A stretch of DNA of 32,000 nucleotides from Dickeya dadantii NCPPB 898 (GTDB taxonomy: Bacteria > Pseudomonadota > Gammaproteobacteria > Enterobacterales > Enterobacteriaceae), in assembly GCF_000406145.1 (NCBI RefSeq), contig NZ_CM001976.1:4609545-4641544 (forward strand), given 5' to 3'. The notes below the pieces were generated by a model that was given only the letters and a program-made list of their open reading frames with translations, was not told where the DNA came from and ran no database searches. Position 1 is the stretch's first letter; every line of letters starts with the position of its first letter. Both the position numbers and the translations under genes were made by a program. Below, piece by piece: positions 6,829 through 29,306 of the stretch.

Positions 6829-6900
6829 TTTAAGATTAACAAAATAATAAAAATTAGTCAGCACCAGTATAAACGCATTTAAGTATTGAGGATACCAATC

Positions 6901-7830: not shown

Positions 7831-8034
7831 TAATGATATCGTTTAAGCTGACTAAAATATAAATAAATTCGGATATAATAAATCACCCAAAATGATGGAT
7901 GATATCAAGGTATAACACATCTACATAACGTGGACCTTATGCGCAGGCAGTGCTAATTCTGTGCACAGGTCCGAATCAACATGCAATATTAAAACCGCCA
8001 GAACCCACTGGCACCAGAGACGTTGTATTACTGA

Positions 8035-14409: not shown

Positions 14410-14797
14410 CCAACTCTCCCAAAATCGCGTGCGACAGCCCAGCCTGACCATAACGGCACGAAAGTATAGTATCAACCTATACCTAAGTCTAACTATCTTT
14501 CCCGATACAAAATCCTTAGAATTTTCAAAAAATAACATCAACACAAAAATAAAAACATCTGATCCGCTTTAAAGATCGGAAAGCCAAATTGGCGCACACC
14601 AGGGAAATATCCGTTAGTTTATTATTTCTATGCCTTAAATAATTCGGGTAGCAGGACAAGGCTCATTATGAGCCAGGTAACGCGGCCCCCCAGTGAATCA
14701 CCGAAAGCTGGCATAAGTCAGCGACGGGGATGAATGCAGGCGGCCAACCTATCTGTCATCCTAAGTATGGCGGGCAATAACGCTGTATTGTTAGCCC

Positions 14798-14840
14798 TTC
14801 TCTCTCTTGTGTTATCCTCCACGATTCGCAGGAGAGAGAA
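14798..14840. promoter_or_regulatory. 9-bp inverted repeat TTCTCTCTC ... GAGAGAGAA in the expR / biosynthetic-operon intergenic region
   Basis: Arms at 14798-14806 and 14832-14840, separated by 25 nt. It lies about 320 bp upstream of the first operon gene. This could be an operator or an RNA hairpin. Confidence 0.3.
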
Positions 14841-15154
14841 AGGTCATTTTCTTCCTCTGCTTATTTTCGCCCGGCACCTTGCCATTCCCTCAAATATCCC
14901 TTTTGTCTGTTCTGTATCTGACGGAATACCCGGATCACATCCTGTTATATCGCGCACGCGCTCCCCGCAGAATGTTGATGATGGAAACATTCGGATAAAA
15001 AACGTGATAACGCCGCTATCAGAATAAACTACACCGATTTTACCGCCGATCTGACGGTATTACTCCTCCCACATCGGCTGGCGTGCAATTTCAAACAAAA
15101 CGCCTGAATAACGCTGGTTATACTCCCGTCAAAGAGACAGATAAGGGGAGTAGA

Positions 15155-15466
15155 ATGGATTATTCGGTAATTATTCATCATGATGATGACACCTTGCATA
15201 CCCTCCTGCGCGACAAACTCAGCGCGATTGGCGTCGATAACGGCCGTATCGCCGAGATCTTTCAGGGAGCCCCCTTGTTCGGTGAAGAGGGGCGGCTGGA
15301 CTCCATCAATATCGTCACCCTGATCGCCATGCTCAGCGACCACTGCGAAGCGGCCTATAACCTGAGCGGCGATTTGTTCGACCTGACGGACGACCGCGTT
15401 TTTGATGCGTTCCAGAATCTGACCAGTCTGACGCGCTTCCTGCGCGAGCGGCTTCGCCATGGCTGA
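15155..15466 (+). CDS. free-standing acyl/peptidyl carrier protein (first gene of the Vfm-type operon)
   Basis: ATG at 15155 with AAGGGGAG RBS (the ORF-track start 15083 is rejected). The canonical phosphopantetheine site is in GRLDSINIVTLIAML. Confidence 0.75.
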   Translation: MDYSVIIHHDDDTLHTLLRDKLSAIGVDNGRIAEIFQGAPLFGEEGRLDSINIVTLIAMLSDHCEAAYNLSGDLFDLTDDRVFDAFQNLTSLTRFLRERLRHG

Positions 15467-16781
15467 CCCCACCCCTCCCGTTGCTGCTGAGGCGGGTTCG
15501 CTGTTCGCCAACGGCTATGTAGAAGAGATTCCTGTTGCCAATATTGCCGACCGCATCGGCACGCCTTTCTATGTTTACAGCGCCCGTCAGCTACGCCGCC
15601 AGCTTCAGCAGCTCCGCCAGCAACTGCCAACCGGAACCGCAATTTATTATTCTTTGAAAGCCAATCCTAATCTTTCGGTGGTTAGAGCGTTGGCGGAACA
15701 GGGGGCGGGGTGTGAGGTCTGCTCGCCAGCCGAGCTGAAAACCGCGTTGGCGGCAGGCGTCTCACCGCAGCACATCCTGTATGTCGGGCCGGGCAAATCT
15801 CTGCCGGCGCTGAAACTCGCCATTGACTGCGGCATCCAGGCAATTGTGGTGGAGTCGGTAACAGAGCTGGATAACCTCAACCGGCTGGCCGCACGGGCCA
15901 ATACCGTGCAGACGGTGGCGCTGCGCATCAATCCGGATTTCAGCAGCGCGCACGCCCGGCTGGTGATGAGCGGCAAACCTACCCAGTTCGGCATGACGCG
16001 GGATACCCTGCATACCGTGCTGGTCAGCCTGCACCGCTGGCCTTCCATTTCCCTGCGCGGTTTTCATGTTTATCTGGGTACCCGAATCCTCAATGCGCAG
16101 GCCATCGCCGACAACACCCGTAATATTCTGCAACTGGCGCTGGATCTCCGCAACACGCACCGGTTAACGCTGGATTTCGTCGATGTCGGCGGCGGTTTCG
16201 GCGTACCCTATTTTCCGAAGGAAACGCCGTTGGATCTGCCGGCGTTAGGCGCGGCCATCGCGTCGATCGTGGCGGATTTCCGCCGCCGGGCCGCCGACAC
16301 GCAAATCATCATCGAACTGGGACGTTATCTGGTGGCGGAAGCCGGCCTGTTCGTCACCCGGGTCAACACCCTGAAAACCGCCGGCGGGAAAACGTTCGCC
16401 GTCTGTGACGGCGGCGCCAATTGCCACAGTGCGGCGGCCGGCCTGAACAGCATGCTGCGCAAAAACTTTCCGTTGTTGCGGCTGGGCGACAACCAGGGGC
16501 GGCCGTTGCAGCCTTATCAGGTCAGCGGACCGCTTTGCACGCCCACCGATCTGCTGGGCGACAATGTGCTGCTACCAACGCTGGAGGTCGACGACCTGAT
16601 CGGCATCACCCACTCCGGCGCTTACGGGCTAACCGCGTCGCCGGGTTCGTTCCTCAGTTTCGGTTACCCGGTGGAAGTGATGGTGGACGGTCGACGCCTC
16701 ACGCTGATACGCCAGCCGGAAACCACGGAACAACTGCTGGCCCGGCAACAGCCGGTCGACCTCTGCGGGGATACGCCATGA
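15459..16781 (+). CDS. PLP-dependent decarboxylase, Orn/DAP/Arg decarboxylase (alanine-racemase fold) family; tentatively vfmK by position
   Basis: PLP lysine in YYSLKANPN. Other family motifs are VDVGGGFGVPY, SGPLCTPTD and HSGAYG. Its start overlaps the carrier-protein stop (ATGGCTGA). Confidence 0.85.
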   Translation: MADPTPPVAAEAGSLFANGYVEEIPVANIADRIGTPFYVYSARQLRRQLQQLRQQLPTGTAIYYSLKANPNLSVVRALAEQGAGCEVCSPAELKTALAAGVSPQHILYVGPGKSLPALKLAIDCGIQAIVVESVTELDNLNRLAARANTVQTVALRINPDFSSAHARLVMSGKPTQFGMTRDTLHTVLVSLHRWPSISLRGFHVYLGTRILNAQAIADNTRNILQLALDLRNTHRLTLDFVDVGGGFGVPYFPKETPLDLPALGAAIASIVADFRRRAADTQIIIELGRYLVAEAGLFVTRVNTLKTAGGKTFAVCDGGANCHSAAAGLNSMLRKNFPLLRLGDNQGRPLQPYQVSGPLCTPTDLLGDNVLLPTLEVDDLIGITHSGAYGLTASPGSFLSFGYPVEVMVDGRRLTLIRQPETTEQLLARQQPVDLCGDTP

Positions 16782-17689
16782 CGTTGTGTATCCAGCCGGA
16801 TGACCTGGTATGGCGCGCTTTTGCGCCCGAAAGCGAGGCCGCGTTGCTGGCCCCACATCCCAGTCAGGCTTTGATGGCGGATTACCTGCGCGCTTTTTTC
16901 CGTTCTCACGACGACCCCCAGGAACCGGACGACGCCCTGCTGACCCGCTGGCTCAACAGCGGCCGCCATACGTTTACCGCGATGATGCAGGCGCTGCTGC
17001 CCGAATTGCAGGCGCGTCATACGCTGCAGCAGCTTGATCTGGTGATGTTCGCTCATTGGACGCCCGACAGCACCCTCGGTTGCGCGGTATCCAACGCGCT
17101 GATCCATGCCTGCGACGCCCGACAGGCGTTCGGGCTGTCGGTGTCGGAGCGCGGGCTGGCGGCGCCGCTGTTTGCGCTGCACGCCATCGACGACTATCTG
17201 GCCAGCGATGAAAACCGGCGCGAGGCGTTGCTGATGATTGCCGATCAGGACGTGGCGCCTTACCCCAGCGAACGGCTGGCGCAGTTGCGTCCCCAAAAGA
17301 ACTGTTGCCTGATGCGGATAGAAAAACGCCCGCCCCAGCAGGCCAGCGGGCTGATATTTGAAGGGTATTATCGCCAACCTTACGCCGAAAGCGGCGACCC
17401 GATCGGAGCCATGCGGCAATTGCTCTCGCGCCTGCCCGCGGCGGACACGCTGACGCTGCTGAGCACCCCGTCGCTGGCGGCGGAACTACAGGGCGCGTTC
17501 CCCGAACACCAGACTGCGGCCGTGGCGGAGTCGTTACTGTGCGCCGCCCCGTTCGTATACCTGAAACACCATGCGCAGCCGGGCCGGCGTTATCTGCTGA
17601 CGGTGCCGGAATCGCGTCACCTTACCGCCTGTGTGTTGCGCTACCAGCCTTGCCACGACGGGCCTTTCACTTGCCCTCCCCGTACCTGA
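16778..17689 (+). CDS. FabH-fold (thiolase-like) protein lacking the catalytic Cys; paralog of 27192-28049
   Basis: ATGA overlap with the decarboxylase stop; the ORF-track 5' extension (16421-16777) overlaps that gene and is rejected. The strings ..MFAHWTPDSTLG..GLSVSERGLAAPLFALHAID..LLMIADQD.. align by eye to the FabH active-site region, but no Cys is present. Confidence 0.7.
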   Translation: MTLCIQPDDLVWRAFAPESEAALLAPHPSQALMADYLRAFFRSHDDPQEPDDALLTRWLNSGRHTFTAMMQALLPELQARHTLQQLDLVMFAHWTPDSTLGCAVSNALIHACDARQAFGLSVSERGLAAPLFALHAIDDYLASDENRREALLMIADQDVAPYPSERLAQLRPQKNCCLMRIEKRPPQQASGLIFEGYYRQPYAESGDPIGAMRQLLSRLPAADTLTLLSTPSLAAELQGAFPEHQTAAVAESLLCAAPFVYLKHHAQPGRRYLLTVPESRHLTACVLRYQPCHDGPFTCPPRT

Positions 17690-17701
17690 GAAGGATGCTC
17701 C

Positions 17702-19285
17702 ATGACGAACATTACCCACCTGACCGCCTGGCTTGACCGAGCAGCCAAAGAAGCCGCCAACAAAACCGCGATCATCGACACCGACCGCGAGGTCAGCTGG
17801 TTTATGCTGCGTCTGCAGGCCCGGCAACTGGCGGACTACCTGCGAGAAAACGGGGTGGAAAAAGGCGACCGGGTGATCGTCTGTATGCCGAACTCACTGA
17901 CGTTCGTGCTCTATTTCTGGGCGTTGCAGTATCTGGGGGCGATCTTTATTCCACTGAGCCCGGACACCAAAGCCAGCAAGCTGAGCTGGCTGGTGGACAA
18001 CGCCGGCTGCCGGTTACTGATTGCCAATCGCATCCTGAAAGACGAAATCGGCATCGCTCAGGCAAGCGAGCACTGGCAGCAATACAATCGTCATACCCGC
18101 GTCTGTTTCAGCAATGATGTGGCGGCCGTGCTGGCGGGAGAACCGTATCGCATCTCCGTCGAGCGCGACCGGCAGGCAACGGGCATCGACCTCGATCTGG
18201 CCTGCATTATCTACACCTCCGGCTCGACCGGCCATCCCAAAGGGGTGATGCTTAGCCGACGCAATATGATTACCGCCGCTGGCTCGGTGGCCGGTTACCT
18301 GCAACTGCGCGGCGACGACCGCATCATGTCGATGATCCCGATGAGCTTCGATTACGGCCTGTATCAGGTGATCATGTCGGCGCTGGCGCAGTGTACGCTG
18401 ATCGTAGAGCCGGATTTCCGGCGTCCGCTGCTGTCGTTGCAGCGCATGGTCACCCTGCGCGCCACCGTATTGCCGATCGTGCCGACCATGCTGCGCCTGA
18501 TCGCGCCGCTGGCGTCCCGCTATAACTTCGGCACCATCCGTACCGTGACCAACACCGCCGCCGCGCTGCATGCCGGCGATATCGATCAGTTGCGTACCAT
18601 CTTTCCGCAGGCGCGCATCTACTCGATGTACGGGCTGACCGAGTGCCACCGCTGCACTTACCTGCCGCCGGAATACCTCGCCACCCACCCGCAGAGCGTC
18701 GGCATCGCCATTCCCAACACCGAACTGTGGGTGGTGGACGACAACGGCCAGCGCCATACCCGCAACGCCACCGGCGAACTGGTGATCCGCGGCGCGACCG
18801 TCATGTGCGGCTACTGGCGCAATGAAGAGAAGAGCGCCGAAAAGCTGCGCCCCGGTCTGCTGCCGGGCGAACGGGTGCTGTACACCGGCGACATCTGCCG
18901 GTTGGATGAACAAGGATTGCTCTATTTCGTCGGCCGCCGGGACGAAATGCTGAAAAACTGCGGCGAAAAAGTGGCGCCGAAAGAGGTGGAAGCGGTGCTC
19001 AACCGCCATCCGCAGGTCGCGCAGGCGGTGGTGCTCGGCGTGCCGCACCCGATTTACGGCGACGAAATCATCGCCTGCGTGGTTACCCGCGGCGATCTCA
19101 ACGAAAAGGCGCTGTCGCGCTGGAGCAAAACCCAGATGGAGTCGCACATGGTGCCGCACCGCTTCCGGCTCATATCGCAGCTGCCGCTGAACCATAACGG
19201 CAAGATCAACCGCTCGCTGTTGCGAGAACAACTGACGGCGGGCGCAACGGCTCAGGTTTGCCCGCAGCACGGTCTAATGGAGTAA
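17702..19285 (+). CDS. AMP-dependent synthetase/ligase (acyl- or aminoacyl-adenylating enzyme); tentatively vfmM
   Basis: Core motifs are IIYTSGSTGHPKGVMLS, YGLTE, YTGDICRLDEQGLLYFVGRRDEMLKNCGEKVAPKEVE and NHNGKINR. RBS GAAGGA. Confidence 0.85.
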   Translation: MTNITHLTAWLDRAAKEAANKTAIIDTDREVSWFMLRLQARQLADYLRENGVEKGDRVIVCMPNSLTFVLYFWALQYLGAIFIPLSPDTKASKLSWLVDNAGCRLLIANRILKDEIGIAQASEHWQQYNRHTRVCFSNDVAAVLAGEPYRISVERDRQATGIDLDLACIIYTSGSTGHPKGVMLSRRNMITAAGSVAGYLQLRGDDRIMSMIPMSFDYGLYQVIMSALAQCTLIVEPDFRRPLLSLQRMVTLRATVLPIVPTMLRLIAPLASRYNFGTIRTVTNTAAALHAGDIDQLRTIFPQARIYSMYGLTECHRCTYLPPEYLATHPQSVGIAIPNTELWVVDDNGQRHTRNATGELVIRGATVMCGYWRNEEKSAEKLRPGLLPGERVLYTGDICRLDEQGLLYFVGRRDEMLKNCGEKVAPKEVEAVLNRHPQVAQAVVLGVPHPIYGDEIIACVVTRGDLNEKALSRWSKTQMESHMVPHRFRLISQLPLNHNGKINRSLLREQLTAGATAQVCPQHGLME

Positions 19286-19290
19286 CGTCG

Positions 19291-19599
19291 ATGTCATTCA
19301 ATACCGATTACGCGTCCAACGCCGGCTATCGCCCGGATTTTTACTACCAGAAGATCGCCACGGCGATCGGCATGGTGCTGGAAACCGACGACCTGTCGGA
19401 ACTGCACCCGCATACCGATCTGGAGCGGGATTTAGGGTTCAAGAGCGGCATTTTCATCGAGCTGATGATGTATCTGGAAGAGATGATCGAAGGGTTTTCC
19501 ATCAACCCGGTGACGCTGGACAGCCAGCAGATCAGCACCATCGACTCGCTCGGCCGTTTCATTCACTCACAGTTGGAGCATGACGTCCCTTGTGCATGA
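19291..19599 (+). CDS. second free-standing carrier-protein-like protein with a non-canonical Ser motif
   Basis: ATG at 19291 with a GGAG RBS 8 nt upstream. LERDLGFKSGIFIELMMYLEE resembles DLGxDSLxxxEL, but reads K-S-G where D-S-L is expected. Confidence 0.6.
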   Translation: MSFNTDYASNAGYRPDFYYQKIATAIGMVLETDDLSELHPHTDLERDLGFKSGIFIELMMYLEEMIEGFSINPVTLDSQQISTIDSLGRFIHSQLEHDVPCA

Positions 19600-21140
19600 T
19601 CGCGTCGTGGCAGTATCTGATCACCGTGTTCGCCCGGTTTGACGGCGTACACACTCCCGCCTGTCATCACACCGAAGGTGACCTGACCTATCACCAGCTT
19701 TATCAGGGGGCGCTGGCGCTGGCGGAGCGGTTGCAGGCGCAGCATGAAGCCAGCGGGCATCGCCAGCGCGCGCCGGTGCTGCTGTACGGCCATAAACATC
19801 CTGCCTGCCTGATCGCCTGGTGGGCCTGCCTGCTGACCGGCCATCCGGTAGCGCCGGTGGAAACCGACAACAGCGACGAGCGCCTGCGCTTTATCGCCGG
19901 CGGTATTCAGGCCGGGCTGCTACTCAACGCCACCGGGCAGGCGGCGCCGGATATCGGCATACCCGCGCTGACGGTTTCAACGGCATTATGTGATATGCCC
20001 GCTCCCCGGCTGGCAGACCATTGCCACCAGATGGGGCTGGCGTTCGGCCGGGACACAATCAGCGGCATAGCCTACATCCTGTTTTCCTCCGGCACCACCG
20101 GCGCGCCTAAAGGCATCCAGGTGAGCTACGCCAATCTGGCACACTTTGTACGCTGGCTTACCGAAATATTCCCCATACAAGGTACAATAACCAGTAATAA
20201 TCGATACTCCTTTGACGCATCACAGTATGAACTGTGGTTGGCCTGGTATTACTGCCAGCCACTCTCGATACTGGATTACCGCGACATCATCAATACCCGC
20301 AAGATGATCGCCCGCCATGCCGACGCCCGGCTACAAACCTGGGTCAGCACACCATCATTGCTCCGTTGCTATCTGAAAGATAGAGAATTTAGTCAGCAAA
20401 ACCTGCCGTGGCTGAGCACGTTCATCTCTTGCGGTGAAGTGTTGACGAAAGAGATCGTCAGCACCCTGTGGCGAGCCTTTCCCGGCTGCCGCATCGTTAA
20501 TACGTACGGCCCGACGGAGTGCACGGTCGCCGTCACCGCCTGCGACGTCACCCCCGCCATGCTGGATGACGACGCGCCGCTGCCGCTGGGTTATGTGCGC
20601 CCCGGCGTCGAACTGCGCATCAACGCCCCGGCAGACAGCGAACGCGGGGAAATCGTTATCGTCGGCCCGGCGGTTAGCGAAGGCTACCTGAACGCGCCGC
20701 CCGCCCAGCAGGCGCGTTTCGTCATTGAGCCAGACGGTACCCGCAGCTACCGCACCGGCGACATCGGTTCGCTACGCAACAACCTGCTTTATTTTCATGG
20801 CCGGGAAGACAGCGAACTGAAAATCCAGGGCTACCGTATCGTCCTCAGCGACATCGAAAACACGCTGCGGGAACACCCGCAGGTACAGGACGCCATCGTC
20901 ACCCCATGGCTGCTGCACGGCACGCCGCAGGGATTGCAGGCGTTTATCCTGTCCGGCCAGACGGATATTTTCCCGGCGCTGGCGGCTTATCTGCGCCGCT
21001 ACTTCCCGCTGTATATGGTGCCCAAATTCTGGTATCCAGTGGGCGATGCCGCGCTCAACCACAACAGCAAGCTGGACCGACAGCGTGTCGTCCAGCAGGC
21101 GCTCGACAAAGGCAAACGCTATGTTTTCGTCAGTTCTTAA
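19596..21140 (+). CDS. vfmO: stand-alone NRPS-type adenylation enzyme (amino-acid activating), first of two
   Basis: ATGA overlap with the upstream stop. Motifs are ILFSSGTTGAPKGIQVS (A3), NTYGPTECTV (A5), YRTGDIGSL..LYFHGREDSELKIQGYRIVLSDIE (A7/A8) and HNSKLDR (A10). The letter assignment rests on my memory of the published operon order and is not verified. Confidence 0.8.
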   Translation: MIASWQYLITVFARFDGVHTPACHHTEGDLTYHQLYQGALALAERLQAQHEASGHRQRAPVLLYGHKHPACLIAWWACLLTGHPVAPVETDNSDERLRFIAGGIQAGLLLNATGQAAPDIGIPALTVSTALCDMPAPRLADHCHQMGLAFGRDTISGIAYILFSSGTTGAPKGIQVSYANLAHFVRWLTEIFPIQGTITSNNRYSFDASQYELWLAWYYCQPLSILDYRDIINTRKMIARHADARLQTWVSTPSLLRCYLKDREFSQQNLPWLSTFISCGEVLTKEIVSTLWRAFPGCRIVNTYGPTECTVAVTACDVTPAMLDDDAPLPLGYVRPGVELRINAPADSERGEIVIVGPAVSEGYLNAPPAQQARFVIEPDGTRSYRTGDIGSLRNNLLYFHGREDSELKIQGYRIVLSDIENTLREHPQVQDAIVTPWLLHGTPQGLQAFILSGQTDIFPALAAYLRRYFPLYMVPKFWYPVGDAALNHNSKLDRQRVVQQALDKGKRYVFVSS

Positions 21141-22644
21141 TCCGATTCAGACACAAATGCGGGAAAACCCGCAGCATCTCGCCCTCGTCAACGACAGCGG
21201 CAGCTATACCTTTGCGCAGCTAGGACGTCGGGTAGAAGGCATACGCCAGGCGCTGCGCCGACACACGCCGCGCTGCGTGATGATTTACGGCCACAAGCAG
21301 TTGGACGCCGCCGCCGCCATGCTGGCCTGCGCGTTTGAAGCCATTCCGTTCACCTTTGCCGATATCGCCAACCCGGCCGCCCGTATTGAACGGATCGCCG
21401 CAATAGTTCAGATAGATCTGGTACTGCTGACATGTGAACCGCGAACCTCATTTCCCTCATTGCCGGCACCGACCATCATCACTACCAGTCTGGCAGACAG
21501 TAGCCACCTACTCCCGGCGGTTATCCCTTCACCAGAACAACTCTTTTATATCCTGACCACCTCCGGCAGCACTGGCGAACCGAAAGGGGTAAAGATCAGT
21601 TATGGGAACTTTGCTGCATTTTCTGACTGGTATATCCCCAGTCTTCAGTCGGAACGCTTCCCCGGCGGCCACGTTAATCATGCCTGTCTGTCTTTCGATA
21701 TGGGTATTATGGACCTTTTCCCCTCACTGGCTGCAGGCAAACCGGTCCTGATGCTCAATCATGCTCATAATATCCTCCCCCGCAAGAACCTGCAGTTGCT
21801 CACCGAATCCGCAGTAAAAGCAAGCAGTTGGTTTTCTACACCCAGCTTTTTGGACATTATGTGTATGGATCGCCAATTCAACGCCAAAAGTCTACCTGAA
21901 CTACGCGTAATTTTCGTTGCTGGAGAACCGGTTTCACCTTCATTGGTGCAAACATTGCAAACCCGTTTTCCCCAGGCGGAGATTCGGCACGCATATGGTC
22001 CCACCGAAACGACCTGTGTCACCCACTCCTTATGTTTACCCCCCATTCTTGACGCCAAAACAATATGCGCTTTGCCATTAGGACGACCGCAAGGCACAAA
22101 CCGCATTGTGGTCTGGGATGAATGGAAAAAACCACTTCCGGCTGGTTGCCACGGCGAAATTGTCCTTCTGGGTCCCCAGGTCGGTGCGGGTTATTTACCA
22201 CATGATCTGCCCGCCAATCAGGCCTTTGGTTATCAGGACAATGAACGTTATTACCGTACCGGCGATATCGGCTATCTGGACGAGCAGGGGCAACTGTTCA
22301 TTCAGGGGCGCAAGGATAGTCAAATTAAATGGCACGGTAATCGAATCGATCTGGCCGAAATCGAGAAAGCCGCCGGCCAATGCGATCAGGTAAAACAATC
22401 AGCGGTTTTCATAGAAAAAAACAATAACGTCGTAACTGAACTAGTGTTATGCGTCCATTTGAACATCGACACCCCTGCCCATCGCGACGGCCTGCGGCGC
22501 TCGCTGGCGCAGCGGCTGCCCGCTTACATGGTGCCGCGCGTGATCCGCTTCACCGGCCCGTTTCCGCTGACGCTGCACGGCAAAACCGACCGCCAGGCGC
22601 TGATGCGGCAAGGCGAAACCGACGTGGGAGCCGTGTCGAAGTAA
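21121..22644 (+). CDS. vfmP: stand-alone NRPS-type adenylation enzyme (amino-acid activating), second of two
   Basis: The start MFSSVLNPIQ.. at 21121 overlaps the upstream gene by 20 nt. Motifs are ILTTSGSTGEPKGVKIS, HAYGPTETTC, YRTGDIGYLDEQGQLFIQGRKDSQIKWHGNRIDLAEIE and LHGKTDR. The letter assignment is tentative, as above. Confidence 0.8.
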   Translation: MFSSVLNPIQTQMRENPQHLALVNDSGSYTFAQLGRRVEGIRQALRRHTPRCVMIYGHKQLDAAAAMLACAFEAIPFTFADIANPAARIERIAAIVQIDLVLLTCEPRTSFPSLPAPTIITTSLADSSHLLPAVIPSPEQLFYILTTSGSTGEPKGVKISYGNFAAFSDWYIPSLQSERFPGGHVNHACLSFDMGIMDLFPSLAAGKPVLMLNHAHNILPRKNLQLLTESAVKASSWFSTPSFLDIMCMDRQFNAKSLPELRVIFVAGEPVSPSLVQTLQTRFPQAEIRHAYGPTETTCVTHSLCLPPILDAKTICALPLGRPQGTNRIVVWDEWKKPLPAGCHGEIVLLGPQVGAGYLPHDLPANQAFGYQDNERYYRTGDIGYLDEQGQLFIQGRKDSQIKWHGNRIDLAEIEKAAGQCDQVKQSAVFIEKNNNVVTELVLCVHLNIDTPAHRDGLRRSLAQRLPAYMVPRVIRFTGPFPLTLHGKTDRQALMRQGETDVGAVSK

Positions 22645-22741
22645 CACTTCCCCAAAATAGCGGTACGACCTGCAAGCAGGCATAAAAAAAAACCGCTGTC
22701 GCCGGTAGTCTGGTACAAACGGTATTGACGGGGGAAAAGTC

Positions 22742-23173
22742 ATGAAATTCAGCCATCTCGGATACATCGTCAGGAATAGCGATGCCACTATTGCAGCCAT
22801 GGCGACCTTTTTCCCGCAGATCACCGTGCACCGCAAAAAAGTCAGCGCGCAGCAGATTTACGTCACCTTCATGAACACGACCCACCACGACATGCAGATT
22901 GAACTGGTGGAGCCGCTGCCGGAAAACCGGCTGCTGAGCGGCATGCTGGACAAAGAGAATAAGGATTGCCTGCCCTACCACATCTGCTTTGAAGTGGATG
23001 ATTTCAATAAAAGATATCAACAGCTGCGCGACGACGGCTGGCTGGCGCTGACGCGCCCGTTTCATGCCTACCCGCAGGGGCCGCTGGCCAGCCACCTGTA
23101 TAAACCGGAGGCAGGCATCATGGAGATCATGTCCGGCAGCACCAGTCTGATCGCACAAGGAGAAACCGCGTGA
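22742..23173 (+). CDS. VOC-superfamily protein (glyoxalase / methylmalonyl-CoA-epimerase-like)
   Basis: HLGYIV.., MQIELVEPL and YHICFEVDD are typical VOC beta-alpha-beta-beta-beta module strings. RBS GGGGGAAAAG. Confidence 0.75.
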   Translation: MKFSHLGYIVRNSDATIAAMATFFPQITVHRKKVSAQQIYVTFMNTTHHDMQIELVEPLPENRLLSGMLDKENKDCLPYHICFEVDDFNKRYQQLRDDGWLALTRPFHAYPQGPLASHLYKPEAGIMEIMSGSTSLIAQGETA

Positions 23174-24303
23174 ATGATTACGCCCTTTTCCTTGCGCCCC
23201 TGAAACACCTGATTGAAGACACCCTGTCCGAAGGGCGCCATCTTGGCGGGCAAATAGATATCGCTCCGGAGAAAGCGCGCCTTACCGCGCAGTATTCACT
23301 GGCGCCGATGCTCAATACGCTGGGCGTGCCGACCGACTACCGGCCGACTTGTTGGCTGGAGGAGGAGGGCGTCGCCCTGCGCTCGCTGCCTTTGGCCCTG
23401 CGCTGCGAAGCCTACGAATCGTTTGGCTACATTGACCCCAACCTGCTGTTCGCCGCGCCGGGGCCAGGCATGGCGGCGCTGGTGGTGGAAAACATGGGCA
23501 GTCTGGAACAACGGGATGCGTTCTTCTCCCAGTTTAGCCGCGAGCTGACCTGGAGCTGTTTTGCCATGACCGAGCCGGAGGTGGGCAGCGATGCACAGCA
23601 AATCCAGACCAGCGCCATCAAGGTGGACGGCGGCTGGCTGATCAACGGCGAGAAATATCTGATCGGCAATGGCGTCATTGCCGACACCGGCGTGCTGTTT
23701 GCCCGCACCACGTCCGGCCCGCTCGGCATCAATGTCTTCACCTTTGCGCCGCGCCATCAGGATGGCGTGTTCGCCGAACGTATCCCGATCAACGGCGTGC
23801 CAGGCTGCAATGTATCGCATCTGACGTTCCGGGATCTGTTCGTGCCGGACAGCGCGCTGCTGGGTCAGCACCTGAGGCCGACCGAGCGTTTTGCCCGCTC
23901 GGCGATGGTCACCTTCGACTCGCTGCGCCCTTGCGTCGGCGCGATTGCGCTCGGCGTCGCCCGTTCCGCGCTCGATCTCGCCCTGCAGCAGCGCTGGGCC
24001 ACTCCTCGCGCCGCCTGGTTGCTGAAAGCCCGGCGACAGTTGCAGGCGGCCATGTCGCAGGCCCGGATGGTCTGCAAACGTTTTGAGCAAGGAGAAACCT
24101 GCGGGCGCGACGCCGGGCTGGCGAAAATCACCGCCACCCGTGTGGCCGAGCAAGTGGTGATGGCCGTCATTCATCATGCGCCGCCCGCCGCGCTGGGTGA
24201 ATATCCGCGTCTGGCGAAAACCTGGCGCGACGTGAAAGCCTTCGAATACACCGAAGGCACCACCTTTATCCACCTGATTAACCACGGTTATCGGGGGATG
24301 TAA
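23170..24303 (+). CDS. acyl-CoA (or acyl-ACP) dehydrogenase family flavoprotein, copy 1
   Basis: The GTG start overlaps the upstream stop (GTGA). Motifs are FAMTEPEVGSDA and FEYTEGTTFIH. Confidence 0.8.
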   Translation: MNDYALFLAPLKHLIEDTLSEGRHLGGQIDIAPEKARLTAQYSLAPMLNTLGVPTDYRPTCWLEEEGVALRSLPLALRCEAYESFGYIDPNLLFAAPGPGMAALVVENMGSLEQRDAFFSQFSRELTWSCFAMTEPEVGSDAQQIQTSAIKVDGGWLINGEKYLIGNGVIADTGVLFARTTSGPLGINVFTFAPRHQDGVFAERIPINGVPGCNVSHLTFRDLFVPDSALLGQHLRPTERFARSAMVTFDSLRPCVGAIALGVARSALDLALQQRWATPRAAWLLKARRQLQAAMSQARMVCKRFEQGETCGRDAGLAKITATRVAEQVVMAVIHHAPPAALGEYPRLAKTWRDVKAFEYTEGTTFIHLINHGYRGM

Positions 24304-24304
24304 C

Positions 24305-24817
24305 ATGGCATACCCGGCGTTGGCCCCCGTTAGCCGTTCGATAGTGCAGGAAACCGGCAGTCTGGCGGTGGAAACCCGCGCCACCCCGTTGACGGCACAG
24401 CAGCATGCCCTGTTGTCGCCCTGGTTTGCCCTCAATCATGCCGACCCCGACATTCCCTGGTTTTTGCATGAGCCCGTCCACAGCGACGAATTCGGTCTGC
24501 ATGCCGCCGACATCATCGCGCTCTGCCGCCATTTTTGCGCCAGCCATGCCAATAGCGTCCTGTTGTACGAGTATTGCGGCGCGCCGCTCCAGTTCCGCAC
24601 CCCGCTGCTGCAAAGCCTGCTCTATGCCGCGCCGGGTTTTCATCACAGTCTGGGGATCAAGGCGCAAGGGCGGATCCAGGCCGAACGTGATTTAGCCAGT
24701 ACACTGCTGGGCCACGATGGCGCGGTGCTTTATCTGAGCGACCCGCTGCGCCGTATCAGTCCCTGCGCCGACGCTGCGCCGGTCGTCTACCGTTACTGCC
24801 GGCTTCACCCGCGCTAG
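24305..24817 (+). CDS. 170-aa hypothetical protein; possibly a truncated relative of the Cys-less FabH-fold paralogs
   Basis: It sits in the same position (between an ACAD and a FabH-like gene) as 27192-28049. There is weak by-eye similarity (SLGIKAQGRIQAERDLASTLL..GAVLYLSD versus ALTISDRGPDAALFALSSIA..SLLLIADQ). Confidence 0.55.
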   Translation: MAYPALAPVSRSIVQETGSLAVETRATPLTAQQHALLSPWFALNHADPDIPWFLHEPVHSDEFGLHAADIIALCRHFCASHANSVLLYEYCGAPLQFRTPLLQSLLYAAPGFHHSLGIKAQGRIQAERDLASTLLGHDGAVLYLSDPLRRISPCADAAPVVYRYCRLHPR

Positions 24818-24852
24818 CCCCGTCGCACCGCTACCATGAAGCAGCACAGGCT

Positions 24853-24989
24853 CTTGATGACGCTCCAGCTATTGATGACGCTCCAGCTATTGATGACGCT
24901 CCAGCTATTGATGAAACGCTCCATACTATTTATGGAACACTCCATACTCTTTATGAAACACCCATGCTATTTATGAAACACCCCATACC
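24853..24989. repeat. seven tandem direct repeats of 18-21 bp in the intergenic gap inside the operon
   Basis: (C/A)TTGATGACGCTCCAGCT occurs three times (24853-24906). These are followed by ATTGATGAAACGCTCCATACT, ATTTATGGAACACTCCATACT, CTTTATGAAACACCCATGCT and ATTTATGAAACACCCCATACC. Confidence 0.9.
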
Positions 24990-25047
24990 ATGACGCCGGA
25001 CACGCCGTTCGCCCTTTTTCATCCCGTTAACCGTCAGGAGTGCGCTT

Positions 25048-25971
25048 GTGCTAGGACACCTTGAGGCGATAGAAGTCGCGTTTCCGCCTGAAGTACAATC
25101 ACTGGACGAGGTCGCGCAGGAAGTCGGCATGACCCGGCTTGATGTGCGCATGTTTGACCGTTTTTACGGGCTACGCCGTTTTCACGGCGGCCCCGGCACG
25201 CTGGACGAACTGCTGACGCCGGTTGTCGACCAGATGCGGCACAACCGGCCGCAGGCTTTCGCCGCCATCAGCCATGTCGCGCACTGCCATACCGTGCCTT
25301 GCGTGCGAGTGTTCGAAACCGCGAGCCAGACACCCTCCTGGTTGAATCGCTTTTCACCCCGGACCGAATTCGCCAGCCTGACCATGGGGCACTGCGCCAC
25401 CCCGCTCACCGCGGCGGAATGGTTGCTAAAACAGCTTTCGCCCGACGACTTCGGCCTGATACTGATCGGCGAGAAAGCCTTTCACCCCAGGGTCAGACTG
25501 ATCAAAGACACCACTCTGATGGGCGAGGCCGCCTGCGCGGTACTGTTGAGCCGTCAGGGCGACGGCCCGGCGATCCTCAGCCGTTACACCGGTCAGGATG
25601 GGCGCTTTAGTATCCAGAAAGGCGCCGACGAGCACGAAATCTCCGACTTTGGGCAGCATTATATTGATTTTACCCGCCAACACCTGCAGGCAGCGCTGGA
25701 CAAAGCCGGCGTAACCATTGATTGTATTGCCTGGATCGCCCCTCATAACGTCAATATCTCGTCGTGGCACCGTCTGGCGCAGTTGATGAATTTTCCACGG
25801 GAGAAAATCTTTCTGGAAAACGTCCCGCGCTATGGTCACTGCTTTGGCGCCGACCCGTTTATCAACCTGCGCCAGTTGCAGCAACAGCAGCGGCTGCGCA
25901 AAGGCGATACCGTGCTGCTGGTCAGCGTGGGGCTGGGCGCGACCTACTCATCGTTACTGATCAAGATTTAA
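25048..25971 (+). CDS. FabH-like (KAS III family) condensing enzyme, copy 1
   Basis: GTG start 7 nt after an AGGAG RBS. The active-site Cys is in SLTMGHCATPLTAAEWL and the His in IAPHNVN. The third motif reads RYGHCFGADP where FabH has GNTSAAS. Confidence 0.8.
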   Translation: MLGHLEAIEVAFPPEVQSLDEVAQEVGMTRLDVRMFDRFYGLRRFHGGPGTLDELLTPVVDQMRHNRPQAFAAISHVAHCHTVPCVRVFETASQTPSWLNRFSPRTEFASLTMGHCATPLTAAEWLLKQLSPDDFGLILIGEKAFHPRVRLIKDTTLMGEAACAVLLSRQGDGPAILSRYTGQDGRFSIQKGADEHEISDFGQHYIDFTRQHLQAALDKAGVTIDCIAWIAPHNVNISSWHRLAQLMNFPREKIFLENVPRYGHCFGADPFINLRQLQQQQRLRKGDTVLLVSVGLGATYSSLLIKI

Positions 25972-26071
25972 CCAAAACGCAATATCGGGCAATACACCAC
26001 AACTATTCCCGATAAGGTACATAATTATCGTGCGAATGGTATTTTTTGCGACTCGACTAACAGGACAGATC

Positions 26072-27208
26072 ATGAAGGCTCTTACGTTCAGTAATGTATT
26101 AAAAGAATTGGATGCACTGGGCGAAAAATTACGGCAGGCGGCCAGTCAGGTAGAATCCGATCGTAGCCGGGCGTTATCCTGTCTTGAGGATGAGTTGCTT
26201 TATACCATCGCCTACATTGGCATTCCGCCCGAATTCATTCCGTTTCGGGGGTGGGACTATCAGGCCTGCCACTATAGCGATCACATCGATATGCTGGAGT
26301 ACCTCAGCCGCTTCGACGCCAGCGGTCTGATGATGTTGCCCGGCGCTTCGCTGTCGGCGCGAGCAGTCACGATGCTGGGCACGCCGGAGCAGCAGGCCTT
26401 CTTCTTCTCCCGCTTTAACCAGCCGCCTTGCTGGGCGTTTTTTGCCGTCACCGAACCTGAAGTCGGCTCCGATACGCAATCGATCGCTTCTTCACTGACG
26501 CCGACCGATAACGGCTATGTGCTGCACGCCCGCAAGAAATTCATCGGCGGCGCGCAACTGGCGTCCGTCGGGCTGGTCTTCGCCCGCGAAGGCAACCTCC
26601 AGCGGCTGGTGATGGTGGAGCCCGAACAGGCCGCTTCTCACATGACGATCACGCCGCTTGAACAGTTCGGACTACAGGGTTCTAACCTGACGGAAATCGA
26701 GATCAACGGGCTGCCGGTCACGCCGGATCGCATTCTGGGCTATCACCGCAAAGGGCTGAACCAGGGGCTGACCGCGCTGGGACAGGTGTTTGAACGCCAC
26801 CGTCCGATGGTCAGCGCCATGGCGCTCGGCACCGCCTACGGGCTGCTGCGCGTGCTGGACGACACCGGGCTGAACGCCGAACAACAGCGCTGGCGCGCCC
26901 AGCAGTGGCGTACTTACCATCTGCTGCGGCAGCAACTGTCGGAAACCGCCGCGCGCTACCAGTCCGGCCAGCCGCAATACCACATCACCAGCCAGTTGAA
27001 ACGGCGCTGTACCCTGTTCGTGGAAACGGTGGCGCACCGGATGCCGCATCTGCTGGGCGAGCAAACGTGGCTGGAAGACGCGCCGTTGCGCCGTCGCTGT
27101 CGCGATGCGCTGGCGTTCGAATACATGGAAGGCACCGCCAATATCCATCTGATGAACAGTTTCCGTTGTTACACTGCCAAGGGAGGCGTCTGTGCCCACG
27201 TATCTTGA
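26072..27208 (+). CDS. acyl-CoA dehydrogenase family flavoprotein, copy 2
   Basis: Start MKALTFSNV.. at 26072 (the ORF-track start 26030 is less likely). Motifs are FAVTEPEVGSDT and FEYMEGTANIH. It is a paralog of 23170-24303. Confidence 0.8.
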   Translation: MKALTFSNVLKELDALGEKLRQAASQVESDRSRALSCLEDELLYTIAYIGIPPEFIPFRGWDYQACHYSDHIDMLEYLSRFDASGLMMLPGASLSARAVTMLGTPEQQAFFFSRFNQPPCWAFFAVTEPEVGSDTQSIASSLTPTDNGYVLHARKKFIGGAQLASVGLVFAREGNLQRLVMVEPEQAASHMTITPLEQFGLQGSNLTEIEINGLPVTPDRILGYHRKGLNQGLTALGQVFERHRPMVSAMALGTAYGLLRVLDDTGLNAEQQRWRAQQWRTYHLLRQQLSETAARYQSGQPQYHITSQLKRRCTLFVETVAHRMPHLLGEQTWLEDAPLRRRCRDALAFEYMEGTANIHLMNSFRCYTAKGGVCAHVS

Positions 27209-28049
27209 CCCACGGTCGATACTGCACCGCCGCTTTGCCTCGCCCGCCAGCATGCCGCGGCAGGCGATCAGCCCGGCGCAGGAGTATTACTGGCACAGCT
27301 ACGCCACCCGGTTCTTCGCCAGCAACGGTCTTGACTGGCATGATAGGATGGCTAACCTGCAATCCAGCAGCCGGACCAGCGACCTGACATCGTTCATCAA
27401 CATGATCGGCCAGTTGCTGCCCGTTTATCGGGCCAGAAACGATCTGTCGCATATCGACAGCGTGCTGATGGCGCACTGGACGCCGGACTTACATCTTGGC
27501 AGTTCGGTGATCAACTATGTCATCGAATCGCTCAGGTTGCCGGCCTGTCTGGCGTTGACCATCAGTGATCGCGGGCCGGACGCGGCGTTGTTCGCGCTCT
27601 CCAGCATCGCCAATTGCCAGTTGGAAGATGACCATGACTCGCTGTTGCTGATCGCCGACCAGAGCAACCTGCCGTATCACTCCACCCTGCTTGAATCGCT
27701 CGCCCCGGAAAACAACGCCTGTCTGTTTTCCGTCAGTTGCCACGAGCGGCCGCTGCGCTATCAGGGGTTCTGTCGCCATCCTCAACCCGCGGCCGACACC
27801 CTGGCGCAAACCGTGGCCCAGTTATGCCAGCGCTTTGCCCTGCGGCAAGACCGCTTATGCGTGGTAGCGGAGCCGTTACTGCTGGCGGCGCTGCCGCCGA
27901 CGCTGACCGGTATCGCCACCAACCCGCATCTGGTATGCGCCGCGCCGTTTGTGGCGCTGGCGGAAAATTACCAGCCCGGCCGTGACTACCTGCTGCTGGT
28001 TCATTATCAGGACACGCTCAGCGCAGTCGCATTACAAGGGATGGAATAA
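27192..28049 (+). CDS. FabH-fold protein lacking the catalytic Cys (PqsB-like partner candidate)
   Basis: GTG start 5 nt after a GGGAGG RBS, overlapping the ACAD end by 17 nt. It is a paralog of 16778-17689, with shared strings HWTPD, ..SDRGPDAALFALSSI.., LLLIADQ and VCAAPFVAL. Confidence 0.7.
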   Translation: MPTYLDPRSILHRRFASPASMPRQAISPAQEYYWHSYATRFFASNGLDWHDRMANLQSSSRTSDLTSFINMIGQLLPVYRARNDLSHIDSVLMAHWTPDLHLGSSVINYVIESLRLPACLALTISDRGPDAALFALSSIANCQLEDDHDSLLLIADQSNLPYHSTLLESLAPENNACLFSVSCHERPLRYQGFCRHPQPAADTLAQTVAQLCQRFALRQDRLCVVAEPLLLAALPPTLTGIATNPHLVCAAPFVALAENYQPGRDYLLLVHYQDTLSAVALQGME

Positions 28050-28085
28050 TGGGGGACAGAAACCAGTGCAGGGGCTGAAATAACG

Positions 28086-29024
28086 GTGCGTCTGACCCGC
28101 TTTGTGACCTGGGTGCCGAAGCAACGGCTGAGCGCCGGCGATGTTATTTGCGCCGCAGGCGCCAGCGCATCGGAAGCGCGGGTCTTCTCGCAACTGTTCG
28201 GCTTTCGGCAGGTGGCGGCGCTGGATAGCGATGTGCCGCTGGCTTCGGTGTTCCACCGGCTGCTCAGCGAGTTGCAGCGCCAGTCGCCGCACCCCGAGCA
28301 CCCGGCCGATGTGCTGATCTATGCTCACGGCATGCCGGTGCAGGCGTCGGATCAGCACCCTTGGCTGGTCCAGCTTGGCCGTGAACATCCGTTTATTCGC
28401 GAGCACGCCCCCTGCTACGAACTCGACCAGCAAAACTGCGCCACGCTGTTTTGGGCGCTGGCGCTGGCTCAACGACTGCTGTCGCAGCAACGCGCGAAGC
28501 GGGTGGCGATCATTGCCGGCGATACGTTATCTGCATTTGCGATTCAGGAGCGATATTTTCCCGGTTGTACTATGGTTGGCGATGCCTTCGCAGCACTGTT
28601 ACTGGAAAATCAGCCATCCGGCCTCCAAATAGGACCTGTCTATACCGAACAGCGACCAGAGTTTCATGAAGGCATTCATGGTAGCGAGCACGCCAAAAAA
28701 GCATTTTATCAAGCTCATGATGAGTTGATTTCCGATGCGTTACAAAGCGTAAAGCCAGGCCCCCCGACACATCTCCATCTCTTACCGCACAACGTCAATC
28801 GGTTAAGCTGGCTCAACTATTCCCGCCGTCATCAACATCCGCTGGAAAACATTGCGCTCGGCCTGATGCCGGATATCGGACACTGCTATACCGTCGATCC
28901 GCTGCTGTTGCTACCAGCCGCACTGCCCGCAATTCAGTCCGGCAAGCCCCACGTCATGCTGTCCGTCGGTCTGGGCGCCTGGATCGGCAGTTGCCGAATC
29001 CAGTATGCTGACGCGCCGTTCTAA
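28086..29024 (+). CDS. FabH-like (KAS III family) condensing enzyme, copy 2
   Basis: The N-terminus MRLTRFVTWVPKQRLSAGDV is FabH-like. The Cys is in LDQQNCATLFWALALA, the His in LLPHNVN, and the third motif is DIGHCYTVDP. Confidence 0.8.
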   Translation: MRLTRFVTWVPKQRLSAGDVICAAGASASEARVFSQLFGFRQVAALDSDVPLASVFHRLLSELQRQSPHPEHPADVLIYAHGMPVQASDQHPWLVQLGREHPFIREHAPCYELDQQNCATLFWALALAQRLLSQQRAKRVAIIAGDTLSAFAIQERYFPGCTMVGDAFAALLLENQPSGLQIGPVYTEQRPEFHEGIHGSEHAKKAFYQAHDELISDALQSVKPGPPTHLHLLPHNVNRLSWLNYSRRHQHPLENIALGLMPDIGHCYTVDPLLLLPAALPAIQSGKPHVMLSVGLGAWIGSCRIQYADAPF

Positions 29025-29306
29025 CCTTCCGCAGCCCGGCCGCACTATTTAGCCGCATTTATCAGAATAGTTCTCAATTTCAGACAAAAATGGATAATTC
29101 CGCTATGCATAATAGCAACTAGGGAAAGCTTTCGCTGGCTTGCCGGCGATAAGAGACAAGGATGTAACTGAACCGCCCCGACTGAAACAACGGATGAATG
29201 ATCAGACGGGCATCGGCCAGACAAGGATAAGCTGGCCGCGGGTTCCCTCCTGATACGGGACGTCAGGCTGGCATGGCAGGGATAGCAACGGAGAAGGGAG
29301 AGAGGA

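Follow-up and report, generated by a model that had tools for sequence, protein, structure and literature searches.

A possible pairing of nucleophile-less and cysteine-bearing thiolase-fold proteins in the Vfm signal operon of Dickeya dadantii NCPPB 898

The Vfm signal, which controls virulence in soft-rot Dickeya, has never been isolated in the thirteen years since its locus was discovered, and it was still called uncharacterized in July 2026 (PMC13395407). Here, we analysed a window of 32,000 nucleotides from Dickeya dadantii NCPPB 898 (NZ_CM001976.1, positions 4,609,545 to 4,641,544; all coordinates below are those of the window), which contains one long plus-strand operon, running from about 15.1 to 29.0 kb, with genes for a phosphopantetheinyl transferase and a histidine kinase immediately downstream on the minus strand. 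Because this gene order agrees with that described for the Dickeya vfm locus, in which vfmM, vfmO and vfmP encode adenylation enzymes and the last gene encodes 'oxoacyl-ACP synthase VfmW' (ACP, acyl carrier protein; PMC9306890), the window is the Dickeya vfm locus and the region of main concern here is the distal part of the vfm biosynthetic operon. Representative proteins of Dickeya clusters share 95-97% identity with the proteins of the window. Searches of the literature turned up neither a solved Vfm structure nor named roles for vfmS, vfmT, vfmU, vfmV or vfmL; the vfm letters used here for these genes and for vfmR and vfmW are positional labels.

All of the open reading frames (ORFs) listed in a sequence-only reading of this DNA are present where it had placed them. 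On the plus strand, the first set comprises an acyl-CoA dehydrogenase (ACAD) at the VfmR position (23170-24303), whose stop codon abuts the start of a protein of 170 amino acids at the VfmS position (24305-24817), and, after a spacer, an enzyme resembling FabH, that is, of the ketoacyl-ACP synthase III (KAS III) type, at the VfmT position (25048-25971; Pfam ACP_syn_III_C, E 2.4e-20). The second set, also on the plus strand, comprises an ACAD at the VfmU position (26072-27208), whose end overlaps the start of the protein at the VfmV position (27192-28049), and the KAS III-like VfmW (28086-29024; Pfam ACP_syn_III, E 1e-7). Both VfmR and VfmU exceed the Pfam gathering scores for Acyl-CoA_dh_M and Acyl-CoA_dh_1, while Pfam detected the N-terminal ACAD domain in neither. 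Each also carries the (Y)xEGT glutamate: YTEGT at residues 360-364 of VfmR lies at the catalytic-glutamate site of medium- and short-chain (MCAD/SCAD-type) ACADs, and YMEGT at residues 351-355 of VfmU aligns with the catalytic-glutamate motif of butyryl-CoA dehydrogenase. With the middle and C-terminal domains and this glutamate in place, both are predicted members of the ACAD family.

The sequence-only reading described these genes as a duplicated three-gene module. For the outer genes this holds: the two ACADs are paralogues that align end to end (27% identity, E 2e-33), as are VfmT and VfmW over their full length (25% identity, E 5e-16; hhalign of the family profiles, E 1.6e-38). The middle genes, vfmS and vfmV, show no significant sequence or profile similarity, and neither BLASTP nor hhalign gave a significant match of VfmS to VfmV, VfmL, VfmT or VfmW. 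The third paralogue that had been proposed, a cysteine-less protein further upstream at the VfmL position (16778-17689), is clearly related to VfmV (34% identity, E 5e-35). As VfmT and VfmW each have separate orthologues in gamma- as well as in alphaproteobacterial clusters, and as the VfmR-type ACAD is nearly restricted to the gammaproteobacterial cluster type, the paralogy between the two modules is ancient and partial, not the result of a recent tandem copy.

The active sites of the two KAS III-like enzymes can be read in some detail. The cysteines of the GHCAT and QNCAT motifs, which had been singled out for mutation, are C116 of VfmT and C118 of VfmW. HMMER alignments place these cysteines and the histidine of a PHNVN motif opposite Cys112 and His244 of FabH. 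In all orthologues, the canonical Cys-His-Asn triad of FabH is altered by a histidine in place of the asparagine (GHC versus GNT), so that the position of FabH Asn274 is taken by the His of a GHCxxxD motif, which aligns with GHVGAGD of CerJ. The resulting His-x4-Asp arrangement, GHCFGAD in VfmT (H264, D269) and GHCYTVD in VfmW (H266, D271), is invariant across loci. The residue sets are then C116/H233/H264/D269 for VfmT and C118/H235/H266/D271 for VfmW, and this Cys-His-His-Asp constellation is invariant in all VfmT and all VfmW orthologues among the KAS III-like ORFs from 40 related loci. Accessory KAS III-like proteins of the related clusters instead have C-(Y/T/H/P)-H-D, the first histidine often being Tyr, Thr or Pro, and CerJ has IPVS where VfmT has PHNV in the alignment. 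As judged from these alignments, VfmT and VfmW combine a FabH-type histidine with a His-Asp pair.

Sequence searches against the PDB gave matches for both enzymes. VfmT matches FabH (8.5e-13), CerJ (4e-9) and DpsC (about 4e-5); VfmW matches CorB (8e-5) and 4v2p, which is labelled KETOSYNTHASE (1.8e-4). A joint VfmT/VfmW profile gave 49 matches at E<=0.01, the best of them FabH (1.7e-15), with PqsD at 3.9e-9, ChlB3 at 7.8e-9, DpsC at about 5e-7 and CerJ at 6.6e-6.

What kind of bond would these enzymes make? Since VfmT and VfmW keep the FabH-type PHN histidine, which is lost in the accessory KAS III-like proteins and in CerJ, we lean slightly towards a Claisen-type carbon-carbon coupling. Against this, the His-x4-Asp arrangement is a hallmark of the acyltransferases CerJ, ChlB3 and AfcL, so that formation of a C-N or C-O bond is almost as probable as that of a C-C bond. 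The strongest rival, to which we give a little under an even chance, is that VfmT and VfmW do not condense at all but act as KAS III-like transferases of acyl or peptidyl groups, making amide, ester or thioester bonds like AfcL, CerJ and ChlB3. They would then provide the peptide-bond-forming step needed by a pathway without condensation domains, none of which was found among the operon proteins with Pfam and NCBIfam. The invariant His-x4-Asp, with the His and Asp five residues apart, would together with the cysteine give the Cys-His-Asp set of KAS III-like acyltransferases, the triad of CerJ and ChlB3 (PMC9573744) and of the Cys/His/Asp enzymes AfcL and AfcO of the Burkholderia afc pathway (PMC12186527). 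That pathway has the same parts list and forms its amide bond by AfcL (PMC12186527), and the CerJ match of VfmT and the ChlB3 match of the profile point the same way. The PHN histidine tells against such a role, being retained in every VfmT and VfmW orthologue, with the FabH Asn changed to His, giving Cys-His-His. This is the triad of decarboxylating KAS I/II enzymes. A Ser-His-His set has been described for DpsC (PMC9573744), while CerJ and most accessory KAS III-like proteins of the clusters are without that histidine. In addition, the best profile matches are to true FabH, and adenylation enzymes resembling DltA and VinM can themselves form amide bonds on carrier-bound amines, as AfcQ does (PMC12186527).

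The DpsC/CerJ/ChlB3 group (PMC9573744) is thus like VfmT and VfmW in having a nucleophile at the FabH position and His-x4-Asp where FabH has Asn, but differs in that VfmT and VfmW keep a PHN histidine absent from CerJ and have FabH as their better sequence match, and in that those enzymes are homodimers with no inactive partner. On the substrate side, a linked polymorphism of vfmW and vfmP has been published, with VfmW called an oxoacyl-ACP synthase (PMC9306890). Compared with D. undicola 2B12, VfmW is 80% and VfmP 68% identical, whereas neighbouring genes are 87-95% identical and VfmV is 95% identical. This covariation of VfmW with VfmP, with VfmV outside it, fits VfmW, rather than VfmV, reading the side chain or residue derived from VfmP.

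VfmV itself is one of a family without annotation. Neither VfmV nor VfmL has a Pfam or NCBIfam match, VfmV has no sequence match in the PDB, and each of the 42 VfmV homologues collected is annotated as a hypothetical protein and has no Pfam domain. An AlphaFold2 prediction based on a VfmV alignment of 26 sequences (predicted local distance difference test, pLDDT, 85.7; predicted template modelling score, pTM, 0.83) returned 720 PDB matches in Foldseek at E<=1e-3, the best 50 consisting solely of type III polyketide synthases (PKSs), FabH, PqsD, OleA and AbyA1 (E about 1e-10, template modelling (TM) score 0.54-0.66). The thiolase fold expected for 27192-28049 is confirmed by these matches to the model, a predicted structure with some other fold being what the sequence-only reading had named as counter-evidence; for 16778-17689, it is supported by the 34% identical paralogue VfmV.

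FabH-type enzymes carry the nucleophilic cysteine at a strand-to-helix elbow. In the VfmV model, residues 120-124 form a strand and the helix that follows begins at residue 128, with an invariant Arg127-Gly128 at the junction. The VfmV profile sets this segment against the AACSG elbow of FabH, with a weak match in register to FabH 3il4 (E 0.23), and hhalign of the VfmV and VfmW families (E 5e-4) aligns the N-terminal halves in register, with the VfmV elbow opposite the QQNC elbow of VfmW. No Cys, His or Asn is conserved in the VfmV family at the other FabH catalytic positions, and VfmV and VfmL have none of the three residues of the FabH Cys-His-Asn triad, suggesting that VfmV is catalytically dead, as had been proposed. 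What the family does conserve lies elsewhere: its invariant residues include H95, W96, P98, D99, R127, G128, Q157 and Y162, VfmV and VfmL have the motifs AHWTPD, SERG, ADQ and CAAPF in common, and mean column identity is 51% across gamma- and alphaproteobacteria. The modelled fold places VfmV and VfmL as a previously unassigned family inside the thiolase superfamily.

This family occurs in a conserved setting. A pattern scan with the VfmV alignment identified 38 related loci, whose architectures were determined by tblastn with the window proteins, in Dickeya, Rahnella, Pseudomonas, Vibrio, Lonsdalea, Xenorhabdus, Mesorhizobium, Rhizobium and many Rhodobacterales. The gammaproteobacterial architecture is M N O P Q R S (alpha/beta hydrolase) T U V W, and the alphaproteobacterial one is S ... 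(alpha/beta hydrolase) T, carrier, decarboxylase, U V W, M, O, P, with no R. The order U-V-W is invariant in all 38 gamma- and alphaproteobacterial loci, with a projected U/V overlap of 13-43 nt; the projected V-W gap is -1 to +23 nt in the 36 loci that include the downstream flank, and a V/W overlap of 4 nt is annotated by RefSeq in Rahnella and Tritonibacter.

A fuller version of the cluster lies on plasmid pRAHAQ01 of Rahnella aceris (locus L040, NC_015062.1 232000-266000). Compared with Dickeya, it has a KAS III-like gene directly after the vfmL orthologue, an alpha/beta hydrolase gene between vfmS and vfmT, and genes for a cytochrome P450 and a luciferase-like monooxygenase after vfmW, the corresponding places in the window being 17689-17702, 24818-25047 and 29025-29306. 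As the fuller Rahnella cluster has these four genes, the Dickeya cluster is a reduced version from which they have been lost. The arrangement of an inactive-looking followed by an active-looking copy occurs twice in pRAHAQ01, as VfmL-FabH3 and as VfmV-VfmW. The plasmid also encodes a histidine kinase, a sigma-54 response regulator, an ABC transporter, HlyD, an AraC regulator and a phosphopantetheinyl transferase; in loci L003-L012, from Rahnella and several Pseudomonas, the kinase (50-52% identical) and the phosphopantetheinyl transferase, the two genes checked, are both present. Vfm is still called Dickeya-specific in recent papers (PMC10616651, PMC13395407), but a vfm-like locus exists beyond Dickeya and the biosynthetic core is far from Dickeya-specific.

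We consider it about evenly balanced that the distal operon consists of two anciently diverged sets of an ACAD, a nucleophile-less thiolase-fold protein and a KAS III-like enzyme, in which VfmV pairs with VfmW. A heterodimer of VfmV and VfmW is plausible by analogy with known inactive/active pairs. The sequence-only reading had likened the two to PqsB and PqsC, and in gene order the likeness is complete, an inactive-looking gene lying directly 5' of an active-looking FabH-like gene in 36 of 36 loci; in sequence it fails, since no match to PqsB or PqsC was found. The VfmV profile retrieved no PqsB or PqsC chain from the PDB at E<=10, and none of the 49 matches of the VfmT/VfmW profile is labelled PqsC or PqsBC, although PqsD ('PQS biosynthetic enzyme') does match. 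In the PqsBC heterodimer, PqsB is without any catalytic residues and PqsC has a Cys-His dyad, with Val for Asn (PMC4807248). The two pairs share a FabH-fold protein of about 285 amino acids without catalytic residues, encoded directly 5' of a Cys-bearing FabH-like enzyme in the operon of a quorum-sensing signal, and VfmV, like PqsB, has a short C-terminal half. They differ in that VfmT and VfmW have Cys-His-His-Asp instead of the Cys-His dyad of PqsC, in that the Vfm operon uses carrier proteins, adenylation enzymes, a decarboxylase and ACADs where PqsBC takes part in anthranilate-derived CoA chemistry, and in that the heterodimer has been demonstrated for PqsBC, whereas the Vfm pair is known here from genes and models. 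Because there is no sequence relationship and the active-site constellation is different, membership of the PqsBC family is not supported, and PqsBC is an analogy, not a family assignment.

A further comparison is with type II PKSs, in which an active ketosynthase (KS) and a Cys-less paralogue, the chain length factor (CLF), are encoded by adjacent genes and act on carrier-bound substrates. Both KS and CLF are of the KAS I/II branch, and CLF has a conserved Gln at the Cys position. VfmV-VfmW would resemble KS-CLF in pairing an active subunit with a nucleophile-less paralogue encoded alongside it, but the top structural matches of VfmV are to KAS III and type III PKSs rather than to KAS I/II, and its elbow has Arg-Gly, not Gln.

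Several observations weigh against such a pairing and favour a rival which we think distinctly less probable than the pairing itself: that VfmV, VfmL and VfmS are autonomous homodimers or monomers with a non-canonical function, co-transcribed with VfmW without being its structural partners. On this account, they could be a cyclase, dehydratase, decarboxylase or carrier-protein docking factor on a thiolase scaffold. VfmV diverges no faster than VfmW, VfmT or VfmU, that is, about as slowly as the adjacent enzymes, and its strong conservation, with many invariant polar residues (H95, D99, R127, Q157 and Y162, besides W96), could reflect an activity of its own instead of a scaffold role. Ser125, which is nearly invariant and precedes the elbow by two to three residues, is a possible nucleophile; D. 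poaceiphila has Arg at this position. VfmL stands alone in Dickeya, with no adjoining KAS III-like gene, so adjacency is not obligatory. No fusion of VfmV with VfmW was found among 42 VfmV and 61 VfmW homologues or among all ORFs of 41 loci, and the U-V overlap is tighter than the V-W spacing, so that VfmV could equally serve the ACAD. In favour of a partnership, thiolase-fold proteins are normally obligate dimers, and an inactive copy directly 5' of an active one is seen no fewer than four times, in three types of cluster. FabH-like enzymes too are known as dimers (PMC4807248). Moreover, no alternative catalytic constellation was identified in the VfmV family, as judged without coordinates.

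The remaining middle protein, VfmS, has no Pfam, NCBIfam or PDB sequence match, and its profile likewise found none in the PDB. The family is nevertheless real: an exhaustive profile search gave 17 representatives at E<=1e-3, four close clusters lie in Dickeya and Musicola, and a hidden Markov model built from the family finds exactly one member per related locus, including all alphaproteobacterial ones. The AlphaFold2 model (pLDDT 86.7, pTM 0.81) has an N-terminal hairpin and two short helices, followed by beta-alpha-beta-alpha-beta-alpha-beta-beta (residues 53-169), the topology of one thiolase repeat. All of its top 50 Foldseek matches belong to the thiolase superfamily (DpsC, CerJ, HMG-CoA synthase, FabH, ChlB3), and these matches are weak (best E 3e-4, TM 0.33-0.45). 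There is no conserved nucleophile. With moderate confidence, VfmS is probably a single-repeat thiolase-like protein, a half-domain without nucleophile; its tie to the fold comes from the structural model, sequence and profile comparisons not being significant. The spacing between vfmR and vfmS is +1 to -22 nt. Besides the weakness of its structural matches, an alpha/beta hydrolase gene between vfmS and vfmT outside Dickeya argues against treating the first set as a counterpart of the second.

That the modules arose by a recent tandem duplication, with VfmS and the orphan VfmL as functionless, degenerating remnants, is very improbable and largely refuted: VfmS is short (170 amino acids) and diverges faster within Dickeya than its neighbours (77-78% versus about 85-90%), and the hydrolase and FabH3 genes adjoining vfmS and vfmL have been lost in Dickeya, but VfmS has an orthologue in every related locus, all alphaproteobacterial ones included, with invariant W40, Y88, P100, D146 and R150 and a confident compact model, VfmL is intact and has Rahnella orthologues, and the VfmT/VfmW and VfmR/VfmU pairs are just 25-27% identical, with separate VfmT and VfmW orthologues in distant classes.

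The spacer between vfmS and vfmT contains a tandem-repeat array (24850-24988; Tandem Repeats Finder scores 119-125), in which about 3.6 copies of an 18-bp unit, GCTATTGATGACGCTCCA, are followed by about 4 copies of a 21-bp unit. The array sits at the place of the lost alpha/beta hydrolase gene; D. oryzae ZYY5 and D. undicola 2B12 have no such array in their vfmS-vfmT spacer.

The upstream half of the operon, all of it on the plus strand, shows what the distal enzymes may act on. It opens with a small ORF (15083-15466; the true start may lie further downstream) just 5' of a decarboxylase gene. The ORF has no Pfam match. Its residues 72-75 form an LDSI motif, of the kind to which phosphopantetheine is typically attached; homologous small ORFs, unannotated or called 'hypothetical', lie 5' of the decarboxylase in Rahnella and Tritonibacter. 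On the strength of motif and position, it is probably a divergent carrier protein missed by domain models. The decarboxylase (15459-16781; Pfam Orn_Arg_deC_N, E 6.6e-46) depends on pyridoxal phosphate (PLP) and is of the type that acts on a carrier-protein-bound amino acid: its best PDB match is BtrK, the L-glutamyl-[BtrI ACP] decarboxylase (E 8e-80, 272 bits), compared with 196 bits for the best diaminopimelate decarboxylase. Its stop overlaps the start of vfmL, the gene for the second full-length thiolase-fold paralogue without nucleophile, and there follow VfmM, a stand-alone adenylation enzyme (17702-19285; NCBIfam adenylate-forming families), a carrier protein (19258-19599; Pfam PP-binding, E 7e-5, exceeding the gathering score) and the adenylation enzymes VfmO (19590-21140) and VfmP (about 21118-22644), both assigned to the NCBIfam DltA subfamily (E 3e-99 and 7e-93, respectively) and both reported, under these names, to be polymorphic (PMC9306890). 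The best stand-alone PDB matches of VfmM are 3wvn (E 3e-67) and 3wv4 (E 1e-54), which we take to be VinN, a loader of the beta-amino-acid type.

The sequence-only reading had proposed that signal assembly uses FabH-type condensations rather than non-ribosomal peptide synthetase (NRPS) or PKS chemistry. This is not supported: three adenylation enzymes, carrier proteins and a BtrK-like decarboxylase are products of the same operon, and the phosphopantetheinyl transferase gene lies immediately downstream on the opposite strand. The enzymes of the operon follow a stand-alone (type II) NRPS-like logic.

A link between the upstream and distal enzymes is provided by gene fusions. In 12 alphaproteobacterial loci (L015-L017, L024, L026-L029, L032, L034, L035 and L037), the decarboxylase and the VfmU-type ACAD form one ORF of about 810 amino acids, and in Tritonibacter the fusion is a single annotated coding sequence (L041, 17244-19682). 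This argues that VfmU would act on the decarboxylase product while it is still on the carrier.

Known pathways provide several points of comparison. The decarboxylase links the Vfm operon to the BtrI/BtrK steps of butirosin biosynthesis, and the matches of VfmM to 3wvn and 3wv4 link it to the decarboxylation of a carrier-bound amino acid in the vicenistatin system (VinN/VinL/VinO); a small carrier gene lies 5' of the decarboxylase gene. Both comparisons cover the upstream half of the Vfm operon, and these pathways differ from it in having no downstream ACAD and thiolase-fold pair. The CloN-type system for pyrrole-2-carboxyl transfer, which combines a prolyl-peptidyl carrier protein (prolyl-PCP) dehydrogenase, a KAS III-like acyltransferase and an alpha/beta hydrolase, was considered and is a distant parallel at most: the ACADs are nearer to generic ACADs than to prolyl-carrier dehydrogenases of the PigA, RedW and AnaB type, VfmR matching acyl-CoA oxidases and dehydrogenases best in the PDB (E 2e-21) and prolyl-PCP dehydrogenases at 1e-16.

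Compared by description, the closest logic appears to be that of the afc (AFC-BC11) pathway of Burkholderia, itself compared with the bolagladin pathway (PMC12186527). Like the Vfm operon, it works without condensation domains and combines one or more stand-alone adenylation enzymes with a small carrier, a decarboxylase that depends on PLP, a dehydrogenase resembling ACADs for a carrier-bound beta-amino acyl group and several KAS III-like proteins, one of them without Cys (AfcR, Thr/His/Glu). Its dehydrogenase has been proposed to make dehydro-beta-alanine, and its KAS III-like enzymes hold thioester intermediates (PMC12186527). It differs in that no inactive/active KAS III pairing has been described (PMC12186527), and in that its product is a lipopeptide antifungal whereas the Vfm signal is small and polar.

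In Burkholderia cenocepacia, locus L039 (NZ_CP091013.1 3064486-3095394) has, at 12307-23562 and identified by tblastn, two pairs in which a Cys-less KAS III-like protein is followed by a Cys-bearing one. One of the Cys-less members gave BLAST matches both to VfmL of the window (E 1e-6) and to an active KAS III-like protein (E 1e-7), and so constitutes a sequence bridge from the VfmV/VfmL family to KAS III-like enzymes. The genes of the locus run from an ACAD through two KAS III-like proteins, an adenylation enzyme like VfmM, a decarboxylase like BtrK, a second ACAD-like protein, a GNAT, an unknown protein and a further KAS III-like protein to an adjoining LuxR-type regulator of the autoinducer-binding kind. 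An identification with the afc cluster was rejected, because this gene content disagrees with the published afc order (PMC12186527), and one with the CepR2-linked genes could not be made either; the locus serves here as another instance of inactive/active pairs.

Alongside the folds, residue sets, gene order and decarboxylase-ACAD fusion observed here, we infer the following route. VfmM would load an acidic amino acid onto the small carrier protein, where the BtrK-like enzyme would decarboxylate it, and one or both ACADs would then dehydrogenate the carrier-bound product at the alpha,beta position to introduce a double bond. The acyl or aminoacyl group would move to the active-site cysteine of VfmW (and VfmT) and be coupled to the next unit. 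VfmV and VfmW would form a pseudo-symmetric heterodimer mimicking the FabH homodimer, as PqsB does with PqsC, with VfmV giving a scaffold, a pocket or a carrier-docking surface rather than catalysis.

With this, three 'hypothetical proteins' of the Vfm operon have a predicted fold and a proposed role, the active-site type of its two 'oxoacyl-ACP synthases' is defined, and a reading of the upstream steps is available in which decarboxylation on the carrier precedes dehydrogenation. VfmV-VfmW, VfmL and VfmS would represent a variant, in a carrier-protein-based pathway, of the known theme of an inactive partner with an active condensing enzyme and, if true, the conserved inactive/active thiolase-fold pairing would be a second, independent example beside PqsBC. 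A broader and more tentative proposal, which we regard as unlikely on present evidence but worth stating, is that Vfm-type pathways in Dickeya, Rahnella, Pseudomonas, Vibrio, Lonsdalea, Xenorhabdus, rhizobia and many roseobacters form a widespread, undescribed carrier-protein-based class, in which KAS III-like enzymes are obligate heterodimers with a nucleophile-less thiolase-fold family, one partner being a unique 'half-thiolase', and the ACAD is channelled from a carrier-dependent decarboxylase; they would then make a new chemical class of quorum-sensing signal well beyond Dickeya. In practical terms, Vfm biosynthesis becomes open to stepwise in vitro reconstitution and targeted mutagenesis, and, given the wider distribution, the signal molecule could be isolated more easily from heterologous or alternative producers.

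Two further features of the window lie outside the vfm operon. Just upstream of it are two convergent, overlapping ORFs (13035-13691 on the plus strand and 13657-14544 on the minus strand), the second of which has a product that ends, as read from its translation, in a LuxR-type helix-turn-helix sequence; together they look like an ExpI/ExpR acyl-homoserine-lactone pair. Finally, the stretch 6001-8000 has a G+C content of 0.32-0.34, compared with 0.5-0.63 elsewhere, which suggests a foreign insertion.

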